This document shows, piece by piece, positions 1 through 11,212 of a DNA stretch of 64,000 bases; positions within the stretch are counted from its first letter, which is position 1, and every line of letters starts with the position of its first letter. This DNA comes from Spirochaetia bacterium (GTDB lineage: Bacteria; Spirochaetota; Spirochaetia; DSM-2461), in assembly GCA_963668315.1 (NCBI GenBank), contig OY764216.1, positions 1,056,001-1,120,000 on the forward strand. The letters run 5' to 3'. The notes beneath the pieces were generated by a model that had not been told where the DNA came from, searched no databases, and was given only the letters and a program-made list of their open reading frames with translations. The translations under genes were made by a program, and so were the position numbers.

Positions 1-197
1 GCGAGGATCAGCGTGGTCCTGAGGGCGCTCATGATCGTCCTGTCATTGAAGAGGGCCGCGTACCAGCGCAGGGAGAAGCCGGTCCAGTTCAGGGCCGATT
101 TGGAATCGTTGAAGGAGTAGAGAATCAGAATCATGATGGGCAGGTAGAGAAAGACCAGGGCCAGCCCGATGAGGGAGCGGGATAAAAGGCGCTTCAT
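1..197 (-). CDS. potC: Spermidine/putrescine ABC permease PotC (5' part only; continues beyond window start)
   Basis: Manual translation from ATG at 197: MKRLLSRSLIGLALVFLYLPIMILILYSFNDSKSALNWTGFSLRWY..., the typical PotC N-terminus (FLYLP..YSFN..GFSLRWY). ATGA overlap with the potB stop. Confidence 0.9.
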   Translation of the reverse strand, partial: MKRLLSRSLIGLALVFLYLPIMILILYSFNDSKSALNWTGFSLRWYAALFNDRTIMSALRTTLIL

Positions 198-1024
198 CGG
201 ATATGCTCGCTTGACCTGTTCAGCCGGTTCATCAGGACCATGATCAGCATGATCACCGTGATGAGTATCAGGGAGATGGCGCTGCCGAAGGTTTCGTCGG
301 CTGTCTTGAGGAACTGCTGCTCCACCAGGTTGCCGATCATCATATCCTGCCCGCCTCCGAGGATCACGGGAATGAGAAAGGTGCTCACCGAGGGCATGAA
401 CGTCATGGTTATGCCCGAGAAGATTCCCGGAAGGGCCAGGGGGAGGATCACTTTCAGCTGAAGCCTGAGCTGGTGGGAACCCAGATCCCGCGCCGCCTCG
501 ATCAGCCTTTTATCGATTTTGATCAGGGAATTCAGGATGGGCAGGACCATGAAGGGGAGGAAATTGTACACCATTCCCAGAAGCACGGCCCCCCGGGTGT
601 AGAGAATCTCCACAGGCTGGGCGCCCAGGAAGGTCAGAATCCCGTTCAGAAGGCCGTCATGGCGCAGGATCGGTTTCCAGGCATAGGTTTTGATGAGGAA
701 ATTGATCCACATGGGAACCATGAGAAGGAGCATCAGAAGGTTTCTTGTCTCCTTCTGTTCTCTGCTCACCGCCAGAGCCAGCGGATAGGCGACGATCAGA
801 CAAATCAGCGTGGCCGCCGCAGCCATGGCCAGTGAGAAGCCCAGAATATTCAGATACAGGGGATCGAAAAACGTCCGGTATCCCCTCAGGGTAAGGACAA
901 ACTTTCCCGTCTCCTTGAGCGGTTCCGTCAGGCTGAAGAGAAGGATAAGAAGGAGGGGAAAGAGTATCAGAACGGCAGACCAGAGAACGTAGGGCAGGCC
1001 GTACCAGTGGTAACGGGTCTTCAA
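194..1024 (-). CDS. potB: Spermidine/putrescine ABC permease PotB
   Basis: Multi-TM protein with YNFLPFMVLPI and EAA loop (LIEAARDLG); lies between potA and potC. Confidence 0.9.
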   Translation of the reverse strand: MKTRYHWYGLPYVLWSAVLILFPLLLILLFSLTEPLKETGKFVLTLRGYRTFFDPLYLNILGFSLAMAAAATLICLIVAYPLALAVSREQKETRNLLMLLLMVPMWINFLIKTYAWKPILRHDGLLNGILTFLGAQPVEILYTRGAVLLGMVYNFLPFMVLPILNSLIKIDKRLIEAARDLGSHQLRLQLKVILPLALPGIFSGITMTFMPSVSTFLIPVILGGGQDMMIGNLVEQQFLKTADETFGSAISLILITVIMLIMVLMNRLNRSSEHIR

Positions 1025-1027
1025 TTC

Positions 1028-2092
1028 TCAGGTCTCCTCGAACATTACATGAATGGCATCCGGTTCAATGAGCATCTCCACATTCTCTCCCGGTTCCGCC
1101 TTGGCCGTACTGTGGATAAGCCATGTCCGGTCGCCCGATTCCACGGTCATTTCCCAGTGGACTCCCTTGAACAGGTTTGAAAGGACCCGCCCGGGGAGAA
1201 CATTCTCCCCCGGGGAGGAAGAGGAGGGAGACCTGAGGATTATATCCTCCGGCCGGATAACCACGCGGGGCTGGAAGTCTCCCTGTCTGAGGGTGTCGAC
1301 GCAGAGGAAATCCCGTCCGCAGAATTCCACCTGGCGATCGCCGGACATCCGGGCATCAAGTATATTGCTTTCTCCCACAAAGGAGGCCACGAAGGTATTC
1401 CGGGGCTCATTGTAGATATCCTCGGGGGTGCCCCACTGCTGCAGCCGGCCCTCGTTCATAACGGCGATACGGTCGGAGAGGGAGAGGGCTTCCTCCTGGT
1501 CGTGGGTGATATAGAGAAAGGTAATTCCCACCTGCTGCTGGATCCTTTTCAGCTCCCGCTGCATATTCTGGCGCAGCTTGAGGTCAAGAGCTCCGAGGGG
1601 CTCGTCAAGCAGGAGAAGGGAGGGATGGTTCACCAGGGCCCGGGCTATGGCCACACGCTGCTGCTGGCCGCCCGAAAGGGATTGAATCGGCCGCTTTTCT
1701 AGGCCGGGCAGATTGACCAGCTCCAGCATCTCCGACGTCATCCGCCGTATGTGCCTGCGGTCTTTCCCGGCGCATTCCATTCCGAAGGCAATGTTCTCGC
1801 CGACGGACAAATGGGGAAAGAGAGCGTATTGCTGAAAAACTGTATTGACCGGCCGCTTGTGGGGGGGGATCGGGTTCATGGACTTGCCTTCCATGATAAT
1901 GGCTCCGCCATCCGGTTCTTCGAAGCCGCCGATCATGCGCAGAGTCGTCGTCTTTCCGCAGCCGCTCGGTCCCAGGAGTGAAACGAAATCACCCTTCGCC
2001 AGGCTCAGGTTAAGAGAATCAACCGCTTTATTTTCACCGTCATAGGATTTGGTCAGGTTCTCCAGTTCTAGGAGAATCTTTTCTTCCCTCAA
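1028..2092 (-). CDS. potA: Spermidine/putrescine ABC ATP-binding protein PotA
   Basis: Walker [40 protein letters not shown]-terminal TOBE-like region. TTG start overlaps the upstream stop (TTGA). Confidence 0.93.
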
Positions 2093-2334
2093 GAATCCTC
2101 GTCTCCGTAGTCTTCGTCATCGGACGCCACCTCGACCAGATCTTCCTGTAGAGCCAGGGCCAGTTCGTCGGGGTATTCGCTTAATTCGTCAATGGGAATA
2201 TCGTATAGCTTGTATTTTTCAAGAGGATTCTCTTCTTTAAGATAGAAACGCTCTTCCTGAGCTCTGTCTCTGTCGGAAAAGACACAGATGGCTTCCCCGT
2301 TTTCAGAAATAAACCACAAGGATTCTTCGGTCAT
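2089..2334 (-). CDS. Small acidic hypothetical protein (81 aa), paralog A; first gene of the pot operon
   Basis: AAGGA upstream of the ATG; stop overlaps the potA start; ungapped similarity to the ORF at 2847-3053. Confidence 0.8.
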   Translation of the reverse strand: MTEESLWFISENGEAICVFSDRDRAQEERFYLKEENPLEKYKLYDIPIDELSEYPDELALALQEDLVEVASDDEDYGDEDS

Positions 2335-2580
2335 GACCCCGTCCTTATCGGAGCAGGGCAGGAAAGCTAACGGTCACTCGCATACGAGGGTGGTTCCCCC
2401 ATGAGGCGAAAATCCCGGGAACCCTGCTGTCGCATAGGATTCCGTGCTGCACAACTCCGAAACACACCGCCCGTAATCTTGTGTCCGGGCGCATAAGCAA
2501 AGAAGATGACAGCAGACTTCCGTTAGCATACAGGGTCCGTAGGTCTGCAGCTCACAATCGTCAACAACGATAAATGAGTT
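2335..2580 (-). ncRNA. Candidate structured cis-regulatory leader, copy A
   Basis: GCAGAC/GTCTGC hairpin (2512-2548) enclosing GGACCCTGTATGCTAAC, further stems and AGTTGTGCAG; the same motif occurs in copy B. Confidence 0.6.
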
Positions 2581-2589
2581 GAATTAGAT

Positions 2590-2676
2590 ATAGTACGTGG
2601 AACAACGTTCTGTCAAGGTTTTTATCTAAGAAAAATAGTGAACTTATTGACCTAGAGAGCGTTTTAAGGGTATAAG
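2590..2676. promoter_or_regulatory. Divergent sigma70-like promoters
   Basis: Minus strand: TTGACA (2616-2611) followed by TACTAT/TATATC with non-ideal spacing. Plus strand: TTGACC (2647-2652)-18 nt-TATAAG (2671-2676). Confidence 0.55.
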
Positions 2677-2684
2677 CCTCATAT

Positions 2685-2846
2685 ACAGAGCAGACAAAGG
2701 ACCCTCCATGCTAACAATGTCTGCTTATATCTTTTGTTCTTGGAAGGAAGAATCCCCTCGGGGCTTCAGAAAAGGTATAAGTGGTGCAGTGTGGTTCTCC
2801 CCGGTCCGGGTTTCCCCTCCCCCTCCATCCTTCCCGGGAGGACTTA
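2685..2846 (+). ncRNA. Candidate structured cis-regulatory leader, copy B
   Basis: AGCAGACA/TGTCTGCT hairpin (2689-2725) enclosing GGACCCTCCATGCTAAC; alternative duplex 2721-2735/2770-2784; AGTGGTGCAG; CCTCC anti-SD tracts. Confidence 0.6.
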
Positions 2847-3053
2847 ATGGCAAAAAAAGATTTCTGGTTTGTCTCCAACGGTATACAGGTTTTGAATGTA
2901 TTCACAAAAAAAGAGGAGGGTGAATCCTTTCTCAATAAGTATAAAGACGATCCTGATTTCGAATATTACTACCTTTATTCCCTGTTTGAGTCTGATCTGG
3001 ACGATTACCCGGATGAATATGAACTGCTCCTCTCCAGAGAGCTTCTAGAGTAG
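2847..3053 (+). CDS. Small acidic hypothetical protein (68 aa), paralog B
   Basis: GGAGG SD before ATG 2847 (MAKKDFWFVSNG...); 20/68 ungapped identities with the 2089-2334 product. Confidence 0.8.
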   Translation: MAKKDFWFVSNGIQVLNVFTKKEEGESFLNKYKDDPDFEYYYLYSLFESDLDDYPDEYELLLSRELLE

Positions 3054-3193: not shown

Positions 3194-4039
3194 ATGAACA
3201 GAGAATACAGAGAGATAAATACGTCCTCCGGACTGGCAGCCTACAGAAAAGAACTGGGAGAGAGGCAGATCGGGAAGATCGCCATGGATTTTGAAGCGGA
3301 ATTCAACCTGCACGTGTACGGAGAGCATCTCTGCCTTATACAGGTTTTTGACGGAAGGGATTATCTTCTCATAGATCCGGTGAAAATCGACCCGGCCGAA
3401 CTGAAGGCTTTTCTGGAGATGAAGAGCCCGGTCAAGCTCTTTTTCGGAGCCGATTCGGACAAGATGCTTGTCTATAAGCAGTACGGCATAAAGATCGCCT
3501 CCCTTTTTGATGTCCAGATTCTGGCGGAAGTACTGGAGCTTGAGAAAAAAGGCCTGGACAGCGTACTTTTCTCCCAGCTGGGGGTGGAAGTGGAAAAGAA
3601 AAAAAAGTTCCAGCAGTACAACTGGTTCAGACGTCCCCTGGAAGACGAGGCCAAGGCATACGCTCTGGGAGATGTGGAATATCTCTTCAATCTGAGCGAA
3701 GTGATGATGAAGAAGATCGTCGAGAAAAACCTGGTCGAAGAGATGGCTTTTCGTATAGCCTCAAGCCACCTGGATTACGACAGGAAGACGGTTCCCGGCA
3801 TTTTCAAAACCCCGGCCTATAAGAAAATGTCAAAAAAGGCGAAGGAAGCCTATGCCCGTGCTGTGGATATCAGGGAGGAGATTGCCAAAGAGGTGAACTG
3901 CCCTCCCAATACGGTTCTGACCAAGCAGGACCTGGCGGATATCGCCTATGACAGAGGAGCTATCCAGCGGATCCGTTTCAATAAGAGACTTCCCGAATCG
4001 GCCAGGAACAAGCTCAGGGAGAGGATCCTGGGGGATTAG
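3194..4039 (+). CDS. rnd: Ribonuclease D-like 3'-5' exonuclease with C-terminal HRDC domain
   Basis: DEDDy motifs: IAMDFEAE, LCLIQV, LFDVQI, W..RPL...YALGDV; HRDC-like tail (REEIAKEVNCPPNTVL). Confidence 0.8.
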   Translation: MNREYREINTSSGLAAYRKELGERQIGKIAMDFEAEFNLHVYGEHLCLIQVFDGRDYLLIDPVKIDPAELKAFLEMKSPVKLFFGADSDKMLVYKQYGIKIASLFDVQILAEVLELEKKGLDSVLFSQLGVEVEKKKKFQQYNWFRRPLEDEAKAYALGDVEYLFNLSEVMMKKIVEKNLVEEMAFRIASSHLDYDRKTVPGIFKTPAYKKMSKKAKEAYARAVDIREEIAKEVNCPPNTVLTKQDLADIAYDRGAIQRIRFNKRLPESARNKLRERILGD

Positions 4040-4082: not shown

Positions 4083-4421
4083 ATGAAAGACCCCGAACTG
4101 GTGCGGCAGCTGGAAAACCTCTTTGACTCCGATTTCTTTAAGGTTCTGTCCGAACCGGTACGCCTTGAGATCCTGCGGTTTCTGGCTATGAACGGTACCT
4201 GTTCCATCGGGGAAGTCTCCGAGGGGTTTCCACAGGATCGTTCGGTTATTTCCCGCCATTTGAAGCAAATGTCACAGGAGGGAATGGTTCTCACGGAAAA
4301 GCGGGGGCGCTATATTTATTACAGCATCAACGGAAGAGATCTGCTTCGCCGTTTGGAGAACATGACAGATAATCTGCGACTTTTCCTGCGGGAGAACTGT
4401 CCCGACTGTGGGGATGTGTAG
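4083..4421 (+). CDS. ArsR/SmtB-family transcriptional regulator
   Basis: FKVLSEPVRLEILRFL...SVISRHLKQM...EKRGRYIYYS winged HTH; C-terminal CPDC. Confidence 0.9.
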   Translation: MKDPELVRQLENLFDSDFFKVLSEPVRLEILRFLAMNGTCSIGEVSEGFPQDRSVISRHLKQMSQEGMVLTEKRGRYIYYSINGRDLLRRLENMTDNLRLFLRENCPDCGDV

Positions 4422-4488
4422 TTTTATTTATTTTTAAATGTGCAAATATGTGCATAAATGCCCTTTAAGGAGGGCTAAGGAGATGTTA

Positions 4489-5301
4489 ATGGATCAGGTT
4501 TATGATGGGATGGAGCTTTTTGTTTTTTCCGGAACGGGCAATTCGCTGGATATGGCCCGTAAGTTGCTGAATGGTTTGGGCGGGGGGAGAATCCGCATGA
4601 TCAACACCCGGCTGCTGGAGCAGGAAAAAATAGAGAGCCGGGCGTCGCTTGTGGGATTCGTCTTCCCCGTTTACTTTCTCGATCTTCCCGCTCCGGTGAA
4701 AGCCCTGCTGGACAGGATAGAATTGATACGCGAATGCAGAATCTTTGCTCTGGCGACTTGCGGACAGCTTGAAGGTCCCGTTCTGGAACGGGTCAGCGAA
4801 ATCCTGGAGAAAAGGGGACATACTTTGGAAAGCGGCTTCGTCCAGTATATGCCGGGGAACAGTATTGTTTTCCATGATTCCGATGGGCAGAAGGAAGAGA
4901 AGCTCCGGGAGGCGGACGGGCATGTGGAGGGTATTATCCGCAGTATAAGGGGAGGGGATGCGATCCATGAGGGAAAAAGCCGAAGATGGCATAGGGCCGC
5001 AGGAAAGCTGACCCGCTGGAGTTATGATAACCTCTATAAAGTGGGAGCAAAAAATGCGCTTCCCGGGGAATGCACCGGCTGCGGTCTCTGTGCCCGGGTC
5101 TGTCCTATGGAGAACATCAAGATGGAAACGGCGGCGGGGGAAGAAGCACCGTCTCCCCGCTGGAAGGAAAATTGCGCCGAATGCTTTGCCTGTATTCACT
5201 GGTGCCCTTCCCGGGCGGTGAGAGCGGGCCGTCTGAGGGTTGACGCCGGGACGCGCTATACCCATCCGCGGGTTAAGGCGAGTCAGTTGGGGTGTTCCTG
5301 A
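4489..5301 (+). CDS. EFR1-family flavodoxin/2x[4Fe-4S] ferredoxin protein
   Basis: FSGTGNS, GFVFPVY, CTGCGLCARVCP and CAECFACIHWCP, RYTHP. Start set at ATG 4489 behind the AAGGAG SD. Confidence 0.88.
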   Translation: MDQVYDGMELFVFSGTGNSLDMARKLLNGLGGGRIRMINTRLLEQEKIESRASLVGFVFPVYFLDLPAPVKALLDRIELIRECRIFALATCGQLEGPVLERVSEILEKRGHTLESGFVQYMPGNSIVFHDSDGQKEEKLREADGHVEGIIRSIRGGDAIHEGKSRRWHRAAGKLTRWSYDNLYKVGAKNALPGECTGCGLCARVCPMENIKMETAAGEEAPSPRWKENCAECFACIHWCPSRAVRAGRLRVDAGTRYTHPRVKASQLGCS

Positions 5302-7245: not shown

Positions 7246-7340
7246 ACGGCAAGTGTGTGTATCTGGCTTAAGGAAGCTTTTTCCTATCACAGTGACGCGA
7301 TCGCGGAGGATTCTCACCTCCTTCCATTGACAGATGCCGT
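7246..7340 (-). ncRNA. Cobalamin riboswitch (short form)
   Basis: Minus strand reads ACGGCA...AATGGAAGGAGGTGAGAATCCTCCGCGATCGCGTCACTGTGA...AAGCCAGATAC...TGCCGT: P1 closure, GGTGnnAnTCC T-loop stem, CACTGTGA, AGCCAGA B12-box. A downstream hairpin (TTCCTC..ATGAAA/TTTCAT..GAGGAA) sequesters the SD of the 7151 gene. Adjacent to a BtuB-like gene. Confidence 0.85.
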
Positions 7341-7351
7341 TGTCGTGTCCA

Positions 7352-7402
7352 AGAATACCGGTATCCCGGGGGAGTGTCAAGTTTTCGGACATTATGTATA
7401 AT
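7352..7402. promoter_or_regulatory. Overlapping divergent promoters
   Basis: Minus: TTGACA(7380-7375)-17-TATTCT, placing the start site at the riboswitch 5' end. Plus: GTGTCA-17-TATAAT(7397-7402) ahead of btuB. Confidence 0.65.
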
Positions 7403-7429
7403 CAGCATAAAAGAGCATTGGGAGAATTC

Positions 7430-9451
7430 ATGCGTATCGACAGACCCGGTCTGTTATTTATTATGGTACTTTTATCCTCGAAAATCCTTATTACGGCGGA
7501 AGATGAGCCGGAGAGGATCGTTATAACCGCCGAGGCCGAACCGGCCGATCCCCGCTCCGTTTCTTCCCAGGTGACCGTGGTGACCGAAGAGGAAATCAAG
7601 GCTTCGGGCGCCCGGAACGCCGGAGAAGTGCTCGCCTCCGTAGTGGGGGTTCAGACCGTCCGTTACGGCGGCTTGACCCAGCCCGTTCTGGTTTCTATCC
7701 GAGGTTCGTCCCCTGAGCAGGTGCTGGTGCTGGTTGACGGCAAGCGGCTGAATTCCGCCCAGGGGGGCGGGGTGGATTTTTCCACGATCAATCCCGACGA
7801 TATCGAGAGGATCGAGGTCATAAGGGGGGGAGCCTCCGCCCTGTATGGCGAAAACGCCCTGGGAGGCGTGGTCAACATCATTATGAAGGACGGAGCGGGG
7901 GAAGACTTCGCCCTGGCCGTAAAGGGCTCCGTAGGTTCTCTGGAAACCTGTGAAGGGGGAGGGCAGATCCAGGGCGGCTTTAACGAAGGGAAGGGGAACT
8001 ATTTTTTCTCCCTTTCCGCTCTGAGAACCGGAGGCAGTTACACCTACGCCAACGAGCATGAGGACGACGGAACGGCCGAATTCGTCAATAGCGACGGCAG
8101 CAGCCTGAACGGTTCAATCAAAACAGGCTATCATATTTCCTCTTCTCTGCAGCTGAATCTGAACGGGCAGTACCATCTTGATGAGAAGGGAGTCCCCGGT
8201 ACGGTAGAGTTCCCCTCGGAGAACGCCCGCATGGCGGATCACCGGTTCGTCACGGGCGGCGGTGTTCTCTGGGATACGCCGATGGGCGCCTGGGAGGGAA
8301 GCCTTTCTATCATCAAGCAGACCCGCCATTATGAGGACCCCGATTTCTATCTGGGGGCGGTGGATGATTTCCACGACAACACAGCTTTGAGCGGGGAGTT
8401 GCTCTGGTCCCGGGAAGACGTTTTTTCCCGGTTCAGCCTCTCCCAGAACGCGGGCTACTCCCTGCGCGGAGACAGTCTGCAGTCATCCGCTCTGATCAAG
8501 TCATCCGGACTATCCGAAGGAGACGGAACCGTTTCCCGTATTCAGCATTCCCTGTATTACCGGTCCCAATGGGGATTCTTTCCCCGGGAGGAAGGGGAGC
8601 CCTCGGTTCTCTCCCTTTTTCCCGCCCTCCGCTACGACTGGAGCCGCGTCAGGTTTGACGATGAGGATCTGGTCAAGACAAGCGATGCTCCCTCCTGGAA
8701 TCTGGGAATCAATATCTCGGTGGATAGGCAGCAGAAAATTGTCCTGAAGGGGAACGGGGGGTACTCCTACCGGGCTCCTTCCTTTGATGACCTTTTCTGG
8801 CCCTCTTCTTCTTTCGCCGTGGGGAATCCCGATCTGGAACCGGAGGAGGCACTGATCTTTGACGGGGGTGTCCTTCTGAAGCCCCTGACCTGGATGTCCC
8901 TGGAGGCGGTCTATTTCTACCACGACGTGACCAACCTGATTCAGTGGAATCCCGGAGCATTCGGTCAGTGGCGGCCCCGTAATCTCGCTTCCGCCCGGAT
9001 TCAGGGTTTCGAGGGGGAGTGCTCCCTGCTGATTGACCTCTCCTTTATGAACTGTTATTCCGAAGTCAAAGGGAATATGACCCTGCTCTACGCTTTCGAT
9101 ACCACGGAAGACTCGGTCACTTACGGTATGTTCCTGCCCCGCCGGGCTCCCTATCAGTTCAACGGCATTGTCTCCCTGAATCACTATGACGGGCACTTCA
9201 TCCGCCTGGAGGGACGTGCTGTTTCCCCCCGGTATATAACCGCGCAGAATACGAAATATCTGGAGGGATATTTTATTCTGGATCTTAATGTGAACGCCCA
9301 GATAAGGGAGAACTGGTACGTCAATATGGCCGTAAAGAATCTATTGAACCAGTCCTATGTGGATATTCAGGATTACCCGGTGCCGGGAGTGGAATTTTAC
9401 GTGGGAACCGGCTGGAATTACAAGCCGGAATCGGGGGAAGGGAAAAAATGA
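7430..9451 (+). CDS. btuB: TonB-dependent receptor, BtuB-like corrinoid transporter
   Basis: TonB-box-like ERIVITA; plug (SIRGSSPEQVLVLVDG, IERIEVIRGGASALYGENALGGVVNI); YRAPSFDDL, GNPDLEPE, KNLLN. Next to the cobalamin riboswitch. Start set at ATG 7430. Confidence 0.85.
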   Translation: MRIDRPGLLFIMVLLSSKILITAEDEPERIVITAEAEPADPRSVSSQVTVVTEEEIKASGARNAGEVLASVVGVQTVRYGGLTQPVLVSIRGSSPEQVLVLVDGKRLNSAQGGGVDFSTINPDDIERIEVIRGGASALYGENALGGVVNIIMKDGAGEDFALAVKGSVGSLETCEGGGQIQGGFNEGKGNYFFSLSALRTGGSYTYANEHEDDGTAEFVNSDGSSLNGSIKTGYHISSSLQLNLNGQYHLDEKGVPGTVEFPSENARMADHRFVTGGGVLWDTPMGAWEGSLSIIKQTRHYEDPDFYLGAVDDFHDNTALSGELLWSREDVFSRFSLSQNAGYSLRGDSLQSSALIKSSGLSEGDGTVSRIQHSLYYRSQWGFFPREEGEPSVLSLFPALRYDWSRVRFDDEDLVKTSDAPSWNLGINISVDRQQKIVLKGNGGYSYRAPSFDDLFWPSSSFAVGNPDLEPEEALIFDGGVLLKPLTWMSLEAVYFYHDVTNLIQWNPGAFGQWRPRNLASARIQGFEGECSLLIDLSFMNCYSEVKGNMTLLYAFDTTEDSVTYGMFLPRRAPYQFNGIVSLNHYDGHFIRLEGRAVSPRYITAQNTKYLEGYFILDLNVNAQIRENWYVNMAVKNLLNQSYVDIQDYPVPGVEFYVGTGWNYKPESGEGKK

Positions 9452-10494
9452 AAATCCGATTCGTTTCTATTACGGCTGTGCTGCTCTTTTTCTCTTCCTG
9501 CTATCAAATTACCAGTATCAACACCGGTCGGTCTTTTCCCGATTACGAGCGGGAGTTTTTTGTCCTTAACGGATTGGCCGAGACCGTTTCCGTCCTGGAA
9601 CCCTCCTATCTGCGGCTCCATGATGACGCTTTTCTTACCGGAAGCGCCCCGAACCATATCCTTTACCGGAATGATTTGTTATATGTGACCAATTCGACAG
9701 ACAACAGCATTACCATTTATAATGAAACGACCCTGGAAAAGTCCGATGAGATTTATCTTGGCTCAAACCGTAATCCCTGGATGGTCATCGAGGCGGAAGG
9801 GACAGGCTGCGGGTATGTGCCGAACTTCGTCGCCGGCACCGTTTCCATCATCGATTTCGGGAGCGGCGATATCCTTGATGAAATTTCCGTGGGTAACGGA
9901 CCGGAAGGAGGCTGCTATATGAATGGCTATGTCTTTGTCGCCAATACCAATTACGACGCCGATACTTTTACCTTCGGGGAGGGTTCTGTCTCTATCATCG
10001 ATACTGCCGATAACAGTGTGATCGAAACGGTGTCCATGGGAGTGGGAAGTGATCCCCAGTCCATTCTGGCCTTTCCCGATAAGAATGAGGTCCATGTTAT
10101 CCTTACGGGAGAATATACCGAAGATGACGGGGCTGTCGTTGTTCTGGACGGGACCACATTTACCGAGAAAACCCGATTGGCCATTGGGGGTTCTCCCGTG
10201 GGTACACCGGGAAGCATTGACCGTGACAACTCACTGGTATATCTGTGCGGAACGGCGGGTATCATGTCTTACGATTATGAAAATCTGACGGTCGTCCATG
10301 GATCGGACGACTATATTCTGGCTTCGGGAGGAGACACGTACATGGATGCGGCCGTTGATCCTGTCAGCGGGATCATCCTGGTGGCGGACTTTTCCCAAAG
10401 CGAAATTATCGTGCTCGACAATACCGACTATTCTGAGATCGAAACGATTCAGGGGTCCGATGGTGTCCAGAAATTCTTCCTTGTTGCGGAATAG
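9448..10494 (+). CDS. YncE/YVTN-type beta-propeller lipoprotein (BtuG-like)
   Basis: Lipobox FFSSC; repeats LYVTNS..NSITI, GTVSIID, ISVGNGPEG, GSVSIIDT; ATGA-coupled to btuB. Confidence 0.75.
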   Translation: MKIRFVSITAVLLFFSSCYQITSINTGRSFPDYEREFFVLNGLAETVSVLEPSYLRLHDDAFLTGSAPNHILYRNDLLYVTNSTDNSITIYNETTLEKSDEIYLGSNRNPWMVIEAEGTGCGYVPNFVAGTVSIIDFGSGDILDEISVGNGPEGGCYMNGYVFVANTNYDADTFTFGEGSVSIIDTADNSVIETVSMGVGSDPQSILAFPDKNEVHVILTGEYTEDDGAVVVLDGTTFTEKTRLAIGGSPVGTPGSIDRDNSLVYLCGTAGIMSYDYENLTVVHGSDDYILASGGDTYMDAAVDPVSGIILVADFSQSEIIVLDNTDYSEIETIQGSDGVQKFFLVAE

Positions 10495-11212
10495 GGTTTT
10501 CCTGGCCTTTCTGGGGTCTTTGCTGTTTCATGCCGTGCTGTTGGGGTGTCTCGGTCTTATTCGGTCTTCCTCACCGGCTAACACCGCTGGGGGAATTCCT
10601 TCTCTGGTTGTCTCTCTGGCCGGAGATTCCCAGCCGGAACCGGCCGCGGATGTCGCCGTGGAGAGGCTTGACCCCGAGGTCCCCGAAGGGCGGCCGCAGG
10701 ATGCACCTGCCGGTGCCCTTCGCGGGGAAAAGCCCGGAGAAAGTCCTTCTTTGCCCGATGAAGCAGCTTCTGAAGCGGCAGACGGCGAAAAATATAACGA
10801 CCGTGAAGTCCTTGGGGAGACTATTGAAAAATCAACCCCCGTAAATGATAAGCCTGCTGGCAATTCTTCTGGAATCTCAGGGGGAGGAGCAGAACGGGAC
10901 GCGGTCCTTGAAGAGTATTCCGGTGAAGGAGAGGTTCAGGCTTATCCTTCTTTCGAGACCCTTTCCCGTGGACTGAATCTGCCTCCTCCTTCCTATCCGC
11001 CGCCTGCTAGAAAATGGGGGTATCAGGGGGAAGTCCTTGTCTCCATGACAATTAATGAAGCCGGGGAGCTCGATGATGTGGAGATCCTGGAATCCTCGGG
11101 CTATGACATACTGGATAAAGAGGTTATCCGTACTATTAAAAAGAAATGGCACTTTAATCCTCCCGGAGAGATCGTTGTGCTGGAAAAGCTTTTCGAATTC
11201 CGCCTTGAGTAA
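10460..11212 (+). CDS. tonB: Energy transducer TonB
   Basis: TM with SLLFH (SHLS-like) motif, Pro/acidic linker, C-terminal PSYPPPARKWGYQGEVLV...ESSGYDILDKEV...WHFNP. Start estimated at ATG 10460. Confidence 0.85.
   Translation: MVSRNSSLLRNRVFLAFLGSLLFHAVLLGCLGLIRSSSPANTAGGIPSLVVSLAGDSQPEPAADVAVERLDPEVPEGRPQDAPAGALRGEKPGESPSLPDEAASEAADGEKYNDREVLGETIEKSTPVNDKPAGNSSGISGGGAERDAVLEEYSGEGEVQAYPSFETLSRGLNLPPPSYPPPARKWGYQGEVLVSMTINEAGELDDVEILESSGYDILDKEVIRTIKKKWHFNPPGEIVVLEKLFEFRLE

Follow-up and report, generated by a model that had tools for sequence, protein, structure and literature searches.

Cis-acting RNAs placed before polyamine genes have been described in several forms. The spermidine riboswitch, which resembles the leaders studied here as a cis-acting RNA before polyamine genes, is described as having the SAM-I fold, a transcription terminator and an OFF mode of action (PMC10853860). 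The odc1 and potE motifs are presented as candidate leaders of polyamine genes, and odc1 as a large-loop hairpin acting at the translation start (PMC8632094). PMC5737381 reports the ldcC RNA (RF02440, SpF59_sRNA) from two spirochaete species; it is a short hairpin upstream of genes for arginine/ornithine decarboxylases and of potA. For the c-di-AMP riboswitch (RF00379), PMC11963983 describes that it can act at translation and that its ligand site 1 requires helices P3 and P5. New classes of riboswitch seldom come to light; those known from spirochaetes are few, as are those that control polyamines.

We analysed a window of 64,000 nucleotides from a Spirochaetia bacterium (assembly GCA_963668315.1, contig OY764216.1, positions 1,056,001 to 1,120,000), in which an earlier, sequence-only reading had noticed twin structured leaders facing outward from a shared promoter region. 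Comparison across genomes indicates that these leaders belong to a real, undescribed family of cis-regulatory RNAs of free-living Spirochaetia, whose switch is comparatively supported.

Results

Twin leaders and their genes

The features of the locus are given in Table 1. The TTGAC −35 boxes of the two predicted promoters lie back to back, at 2616 and 2647; a consensus promoter scan did not list the plus promoter. All the blocks that the sequence-only reading had seen in both leaders were located, namely GCAGAC (2690-2695), GGACCC (2699-2704), GCTAAC (2710-2715) and GTCTGC (2719-2724) in the plus copy, and GCAGAC (2548-2543) and GTCTGC (2517-2512) in the minus copy. Its alternative pairings were recovered as well: 15 pairs in the plus leader, overlapping the 3′ arm of the hairpin by 4 nt, and in the minus leader a 2513-2502/2458-2446 stem enclosing 2491-2486/2473-2468. 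Chance does not explain the shared blocks, as the 17-nt loop pattern GGACCCT-NN-ATGCTAAC has two matches in the 5.6-Mb genome, both at the window leaders. P0001 and P0002 are paralogues (29% identity, E 3e-10), and the shared blocks therefore reflect duplication of a leader together with its gene. One leader had been said to head potABC; the pot genes are indeed there, but they follow P0002, a small acidic ORF that directly precedes potA. The small paralogous ORFs had been missed, as had the long-range anti-anti-Shine-Dalgarno (anti-anti-SD) helix described below.

In a tree of 40 small proteins, built on few columns and including kin that are not independent, leader subtype tracks protein clade (four changes, against a minimum of three and a shuffled mean of 15.8), and the two proteins of the window sit either side of a supported branch. 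This indicates that the twins are an old duplication of leader together with gene. The back-to-back layout is also present in two genomes of the same genus (G002 and G003). The best NCBIfam matches of the potA-like gene are spermidine/putrescine ATPases, each slightly below its cut-off, and potD follows potC beyond the window edge (G000:1055419-1054370, where G000 is the source genome). On the other side, the RNase D-like gene may be transcribed separately from P0001. Further along the plus strand, an ArsR-type regulator and a flavodoxin-like 4Fe-4S protein are encoded at 4083-5301, and the same pair lies near the orthologous locus of G003; genes labelled by eye as TonB-dependent receptor-like, beta-propeller-like and TonB-like occupy 7334-11212. 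No cobalamin riboswitch scored above the Rfam cut-off anywhere in the window.

Table 1. Features of the divergent locus (window coordinates)
Position	Strand	Feature	Details	Basis
1..1024	-	potB-like permease and start of potC	potB-like at 1024-194	
1028..2092	-	potA-like polyamine ABC ATPase	behind P0002	NCBIfam
2089..2334	-	small acidic protein P0002, 81 aa	P0001 paralogue; stop overlaps potA start	
2335..2358	-	hairpin over P0002 Shine-Dalgarno	Shine-Dalgarno 2346-2342	
2446..2513	-	competing stem P2	2513-2502 with 2458-2446, enclosing 2491-2468 stem	
2512..2548	-	aptamer-like hairpin P1, subtype B	two inner pairs; model R2 58.3 bits	
2557..2571	-	extra small 5′ hairpin P0	UGUUG loop; seen in long-spacing (class II) copies	fold
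2585..2616	-	predicted promoter of minus leader	−35 TTGACA 2616-2611; −10 region 2595-2585, register unsure	
2647..2676	+	predicted promoter of plus leader	−35 TTGACC 2647-2652; −10 TATAAG 2671-2676	
2690..2724	+	aptamer-like hairpin P1, subtype A	near-invariant loop; inner G2699-C2715 pair; model R2 69.9 bits	
2721..2784	+	competing stem P2	2721-2735 with 2770-2784; invades P1 3′ arm	
2742..2748	+	purine tract GGAAGGA inside P2 insert	anti-anti-SD	
2828..2842	+	anti-SD tract and Shine-Dalgarno hairpin	anti-SD 2828-2834; Shine-Dalgarno 2837-2842	
2847..3053	+	small acidic protein P0001, 68 aa	rare family	
3194..4039	+	RNase D-like 3′-5′ exonuclease	behind P0001; Pfam DNA_pol_A_exo1 E 1e-24, weak HRDC	

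A hairpin family of Spirochaetia

The motif recurs in related leaders with its stem pairing retained, and the family now comprises 56 distinct copies, all in Spirochaetia or bearing Spirochaetia genes. Two covariance models returned the same three strong copies in the source genome, the third of which lies at G000:4983969 before a SET-domain gene. Loosening the pattern brought 25 matches, spread over 16 of 41 related genomes, against 3 for its reversed control, and a further loosened one matched in 34 of 401 genomes; model R1 had matches in 21 of 38 genomes from the taxonomic family and in 18 of 151 from the class, a few of these matches being weak. An exact scan of a species-level genome collection yielded 20 stretches, every one titled Spirochaetia. 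Among metagenomes the stem was present in 5 of 61 matches to a stem-free pattern, all five with Spirochaetia-type genes, and among viral contigs in none of 11 pattern matches. Outside the class, a 151-genome sample of the phylum held nothing credible (R2 matched five of the 151, four weakly and without the loop). These searches used patterns with fixed parts or fixed spacing, so distant variants may have been missed. The 56 copies exclude a degenerate one for which no start was found (L095), duplicates (L098, L190), loop words without the stem (L102, L126, L127, L131, L133, L138), weak model matches without loop words (L075, L099, L135-L137) and the other 56 of the 61 metagenome matches. Rfam 15 has no family that matched the motif, either at the leaders of the window or at 20 related loci, in keeping with the earlier view that it is not a known riboswitch class. 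In the literature searched there was no description of it, and supplements or motif surveys outside Rfam might contain one.

The core of the RNA is a 35-nt hairpin, P1, whose conserved stem closes the loop G-GA(C/A)CC-N5-GCUAA-C. Leaving out L097, the other 55 of the 56 cores pair at each of the six P1 positions, and their substitutions comprise one C-G to U-A, three A-U to G-U and seven G-C to A-U. Across the 53 distinct cores, 99.5% of P1 cells are paired, compared with at most 42% in slid controls; two-sided changes occur at three pairs, in nine cells, seven of which fall at one pair in close kin. RNAalifold recovered the same stem. It did not predict the inner G-C that flanks the loop, a pair supported by its single swap to C-G, in L132, and an additional C-G pair is found in all 15 copies having a 4-nt 5′ linker. 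The invariance of the loop, like the pairing of P2 below, is partly built in by the search patterns. Upstream, TTGAC is present in 55 of the 56 copies, mostly 42-47 or 64-72 nt before the stem, two tight distances that would place the hairpin at the 5′ end of the transcript. In seven long-spacing copies (L062, L067, L069, L072, L073, L077 and L082) an extra 5′ hairpin with a UGUNN loop was seen by eye before P1, and it may be a second element.

Expression platform

Behind P1, a competing stem P2 extends 2-4 nt into it in the 31 subtype-A leaders. Its columns 5-13, nine in number, are fully paired in all 31, which had been chosen by both P2 arms, and one-sided changes retain pairing through G-U. 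Within the P2 insert lies a purine tract complementary to the pyrimidines that precede the Shine-Dalgarno sequence (SD), and the two tracts vary in sequence between genera. In the 22 of 30 subtype-A leaders long enough to test, this purine/anti-SD helix reaches −13.4 kcal/mol with the leader's own partner against −9.1 kcal/mol with the others. None of 10,000 permutations equalled this preference, whose mean z against shuffled partners is −2.5. The preference persists when each genus or metagenome source is represented by a single leader (n=13). In the short leaders L030, L074 and L204 the SD itself is held by the competing strand.

Folding calculations suggest an order of events. The median probability of P1 is 1.00 at +20 nt, 0.94 at +40 and 0.02 at +60 (n=54), and full-length leaders disfavour P1 by a median of 8 kcal/mol, with the loop left unstructured, so that control must be kinetic. 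When P1 was forced, the SD became more open in 29 of 50 leaders, less open in 9 and stayed the same in 12; five leaders with an uncertain start or no SD had been excluded, and in some cases forcing placed the stem one pair out of register. Control by a transcription terminator was rejected, since terminator-like sites occur in only 2 of 55 leaders. Taken together, the early dominance and later loss of P1, the pairing of purine and anti-SD tracts within their own leader, the opening of the SD by forced P1 and the scarcity of terminators lead us to predict a kinetically controlled translational ON switch. That the two folds are mutually exclusive and act at translation, as the sequence-only reading had proposed, agrees with the pairing kept in the 53 distinct cores and with the few terminator-like sites. 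Its further suggestion, that loop bases pair directly before the ATG, does not describe a feature common to the compared leaders.

In the plus copy of the window, P1 combined with the long-range helix lies at most 1.9 kcal/mol from the best P1 fold, in which the SD is still closed. The SD of the minus (potABCD) copy is equally closed in both folds (0.28 vs 0.25), which favours neither direction of switching for this copy; a freeing helix proposed for it costs 10 kcal/mol and was dropped as unsupported. The folding energies of the two whole leaders are not unusual (z +0.5 and −1.6), and the structural support thus comes from the comparison between genomes.

Downstream genes

The first gene behind the 56 copies encodes a small acidic protein in 41 cases, SpeA in 3, the pyruvoyl arginine decarboxylase PvlArgDC in 1, a ThrC-like protein in 2, an uncharacterised 341-aa protein in 4, the rpsU product in 3, and a RimK-type and a SET protein in 1 each. 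The small acidic gene is followed by potA seven times and by a speA operon twice, and in one to three cases each by ThrC-like-DUF1611, Ddl-like, RimK, MscS, RRM, RNase D-like, TrkH-TrkA or DHH-DHHA1 genes, so that MscS, TrkH-TrkA and DHH-DHHA1 stand as second genes; the domain scan took in 45 of the 100 listed ORFs or their like. The speA operons include a carboxyspermidine synthase-like gene, nspC and agmatinase, and the PvlArgDC gene is paired with agmatinase. Tabulated in this way, 13 of the 56 copies head polyamine operons (speA-nspC, PvlArgDC and potABCD; families f1, f12 and f21) and 43 head other genes. The three polyamine gene sets are non-homologous and comprise two unrelated arginine decarboxylases and PotABCD, which bears out the polyamine link read from the window. 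ATP-grasp genes and ThrC-like-DUF1611-epimerase are among the sets headed by the same core, and the RNA groups the small acidic family, ThrC-like-DUF1611-epimerase and ATP-grasp ligases with polyamine metabolism. In the source genome, no motif was found at the speA operon, the ThrC-like operon or either rpsU gene.

Some loci showed further particulars. One motif-free rpsU of the source genome lies directly behind an ABC operon that resembles, by eye, glycine-betaine uptake (G000:C1:1733031-1734981). The 341-aa protein (L253:185-1207, L058, L078, L121) is followed by a GNAT gene and has no Pfam or NCBIfam match; its nearest atlas clusters are unnamed (0.99), and DUF1611 appears on 16% of one neighbour cluster. 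In L264 (G025), the ThrC-like and epimerase-like genes behind the small gene are present only as short fragments.

The small acidic proteins form a rare family, with 39 clusters among 1.84 billion representatives, and a single-sequence search found one relative. The fold, a small beta-alpha domain, is confidently predicted (pLDDT 85.8); Foldseek gave no structural match at E<=0.001, and the best VIA Z was 5.3. NCBIfam has no family for the protein (best atlas score 0.85). DUF7336 (PF24024) matches 16 of 40 members at E<=0.1, at best 1.3e-6, and P0001 reaches 16.3 bits against a Pfam cut-off of 25. Searching by the small protein gave 26 places in 22 of 151 genomes. Twelve of these loci were new; one carries a loop variant and 11 are without the motif, most with a promoter-like box near the start. 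In several of the RNA-less loci (L238-L245, L247-L249) the small acidic gene still precedes ThrC-like-DUF1611, Ddl-like or MscS-like genes, which suggests that the protein is tied to this gene set independently of the RNA. Tandem pairs of small acidic paralogues stand behind one leader in L080 and L122.

Discussion

A riboswitch is generally marked by a conserved, structured 5′ element joined to an expression platform, both of which are found here, and by direct, selective binding of a ligand without a protein, which the family would share on our favoured reading. We favour a riboswitch-type translational ON switch in which a small effector binds the P1 loop, and give this reading about an even chance. 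The 35-nt P1 hairpin would be transcribed first and fold immediately. With an effector on the conserved loop, P1 would persist and P2 could not fully close, so that the purine tract of the P2 insert would capture the anti-SD tract and free the ribosome-binding site. Without the effector, the strand made 40-60 nt later would invade P1 and zip up the loop, and the SD would be covered by the anti-SD tract. As only the P1 state leaves the conserved bases exposed, the effector should bind that state and switch the genes on. The candidate is small, its platform is comparatively supported and its gene set is varied, which makes it testable at once with a short ligand panel.

The same RNA switch could instead be worked by a protein (CsrA, an RRM protein or a ribosomal component) that binds the loop and holds P1, an alternative that we take seriously while thinking it unlikely. 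The CsrA site is a single-stranded ANGGA in a hairpin loop; most loops of the family start with the similar A(A/C)GGA, and a small hairpin with a conserved loop suits recognition by a protein. Translation-related genes also belong to the set, with rpsU first in 3 of 56 copies besides the RRM, RimK and RNase D-like genes. However, GGA is lost in L132 and L235, its first G appears paired, and, unlike an RNA binder, the protein that the first gene usually encodes is strongly acidic.

We find it rather doubtful that the RNA senses the polyamine pathway itself, be it through spermidine, putrescine or a precursor such as arginine or agmatine. The 13 polyamine operons speak for such a role, and a precursor as ON signal would suit the predicted direction. 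Sensing of an end product, in contrast, needs an OFF switch, as in the spermidine riboswitch described in PMC10853860, whereas the prediction is ON in 29 of 50 leaders and OFF in 9. Of the polyamine sensing that the sequence-only reading had thought plausible, sensing of spermidine is unsupported as stated: the predicted ON response includes synthesis genes, the other 43 copies stand before other genes, and the speA operon of the source genome lacks the motif. 

In the favoured reading synthesis and uptake would both be switched on, which fits sensing of spermidine excess poorly; what the effector signals is most probably the ionic or osmotic state and not a surplus of polyamines. The ON logic would fit a signal of need, such as low osmolarity, or a precursor. 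At low osmolarity, polyamines replace K+ and mechanosensitive channels matter.

A ribosome-mediated attenuator, in which the loop would contain an SD-like GGA and the start codon of a leader peptide (the AUG of AUGCUAAC), seems highly improbable to us. AUG is present in 36 of 55 copies and GUG or UUG in five more, about 6 nt behind A(A/C)GGA, but 14 of the 55 have AAG, ACG or AGG at this place, the peptides range from 3 to at least 200 residues and, relative to the main gene, occupy all three frames, and CUA never changes synonymously. A leader peptide was rejected on these grounds. Least credible of all is a DNA operator, a GCAGAC-N23-25-GTCTGC inverted repeat bound by a repressor directly behind the promoter: the repeat is near-invariant and near the predicted start, but its changes keep sense-strand G-U pairs with no A-C in the P2 core, the conserved loop is asymmetric, the spacing is variable and there is long-range pairing with the SD region.

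Comparison with known RNAs

The described polyamine leaders differ from the family. The ldcC RNA has an unrelated consensus, and RF02440 had no match at the site, while its positive control worked, scoring 56 bits at 2 of the 5 loci that precede genes for OKR decarboxylases; conversely, model R1 matched no ldcC leader in 10 loci. The ldcC RNA is widespread in Firmicutes, whereas the exact genome matches of the new family are all Spirochaetia. In two genomes from another class of the phylum (L222:388-447, L223:389-448), the ldcC RNA itself was seen upstream of a gene for an OKR decarboxylase of 491 aa. The SAM-I fold, terminator and OFF mode of the spermidine riboswitch do not apply to the new family, and no SAM family matched at the site at E<=10. 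PMC8632094 describes odc1 as alphaproteobacterial, with a uORF of constant length (11 residues), and potE as coming from Veillonella; a uORF of the odc1 type, with conserved start codon and fixed peptide length, was not found in our family.

The closest likeness of the loop is to the c-di-AMP riboswitch. In the RF00379 consensus the last P3 pair is G-C, with GAaCC inside its 5′ side and GCUAA inside its 3′ side, and the family loop has GA(A/C)CC and GCUAA in the same register inside a closing G-C, down to the A/C position. Some osmotic and K+ genes downstream add to the likeness. The linkers differ, with 5 nt ending in AU in the family and GuCA in RF00379, and so do the sizes, with a 35-nt core against 134 model positions. 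The family is without P4-P7, the second junction and the pseudoknot, and its CCC has no upstream GGG partner. As the pocket-forming P5 is absent, it is not a member of RF00379; that model had no match at the site, and the canonical riboswitch was found in 0 of 151 class genomes. Rough arithmetic puts the chance of the loop match, which was noticed after the fact, at about 3e-7 per helix end, 1e-4 over riboswitch classes and 1e-2 over all Rfam, and we regard the match to the P3 junction as a lead, not a proof. The source genome encodes a diadenylate cyclase, but one was also detected in 11 of 14 control genomes, so its presence does not discriminate. The family is predicted to act as an ON switch, unlike the c-di-AMP riboswitch, and an account of c-di-AMP as normally repressing K+ uptake genes (PMC7288161) counts against c-di-AMP in this direction.

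The recurrence of the P3 junction strands in the loop nevertheless makes c-di-AMP, or else a related nucleotide, our leading named candidate for the effector of the favoured riboswitch-type switch, a tentative one that is improbable overall; ions or other nucleotides take the remainder of what we allow that reading. One could thus imagine, equally tentatively, a new class in which a 35-nt aptamer corresponds to the P3 junction of the c-di-AMP riboswitch, either with the rest deleted or as its stand-alone ancestor, and senses c-di-AMP or an altered ligand, switching on polyamine synthesis, uptake and the rare acidic proteins. Were it descended from the c-di-AMP riboswitch, the family would show a large aptamer shrinking to one module and would link nucleotide signalling to polyamine supply.
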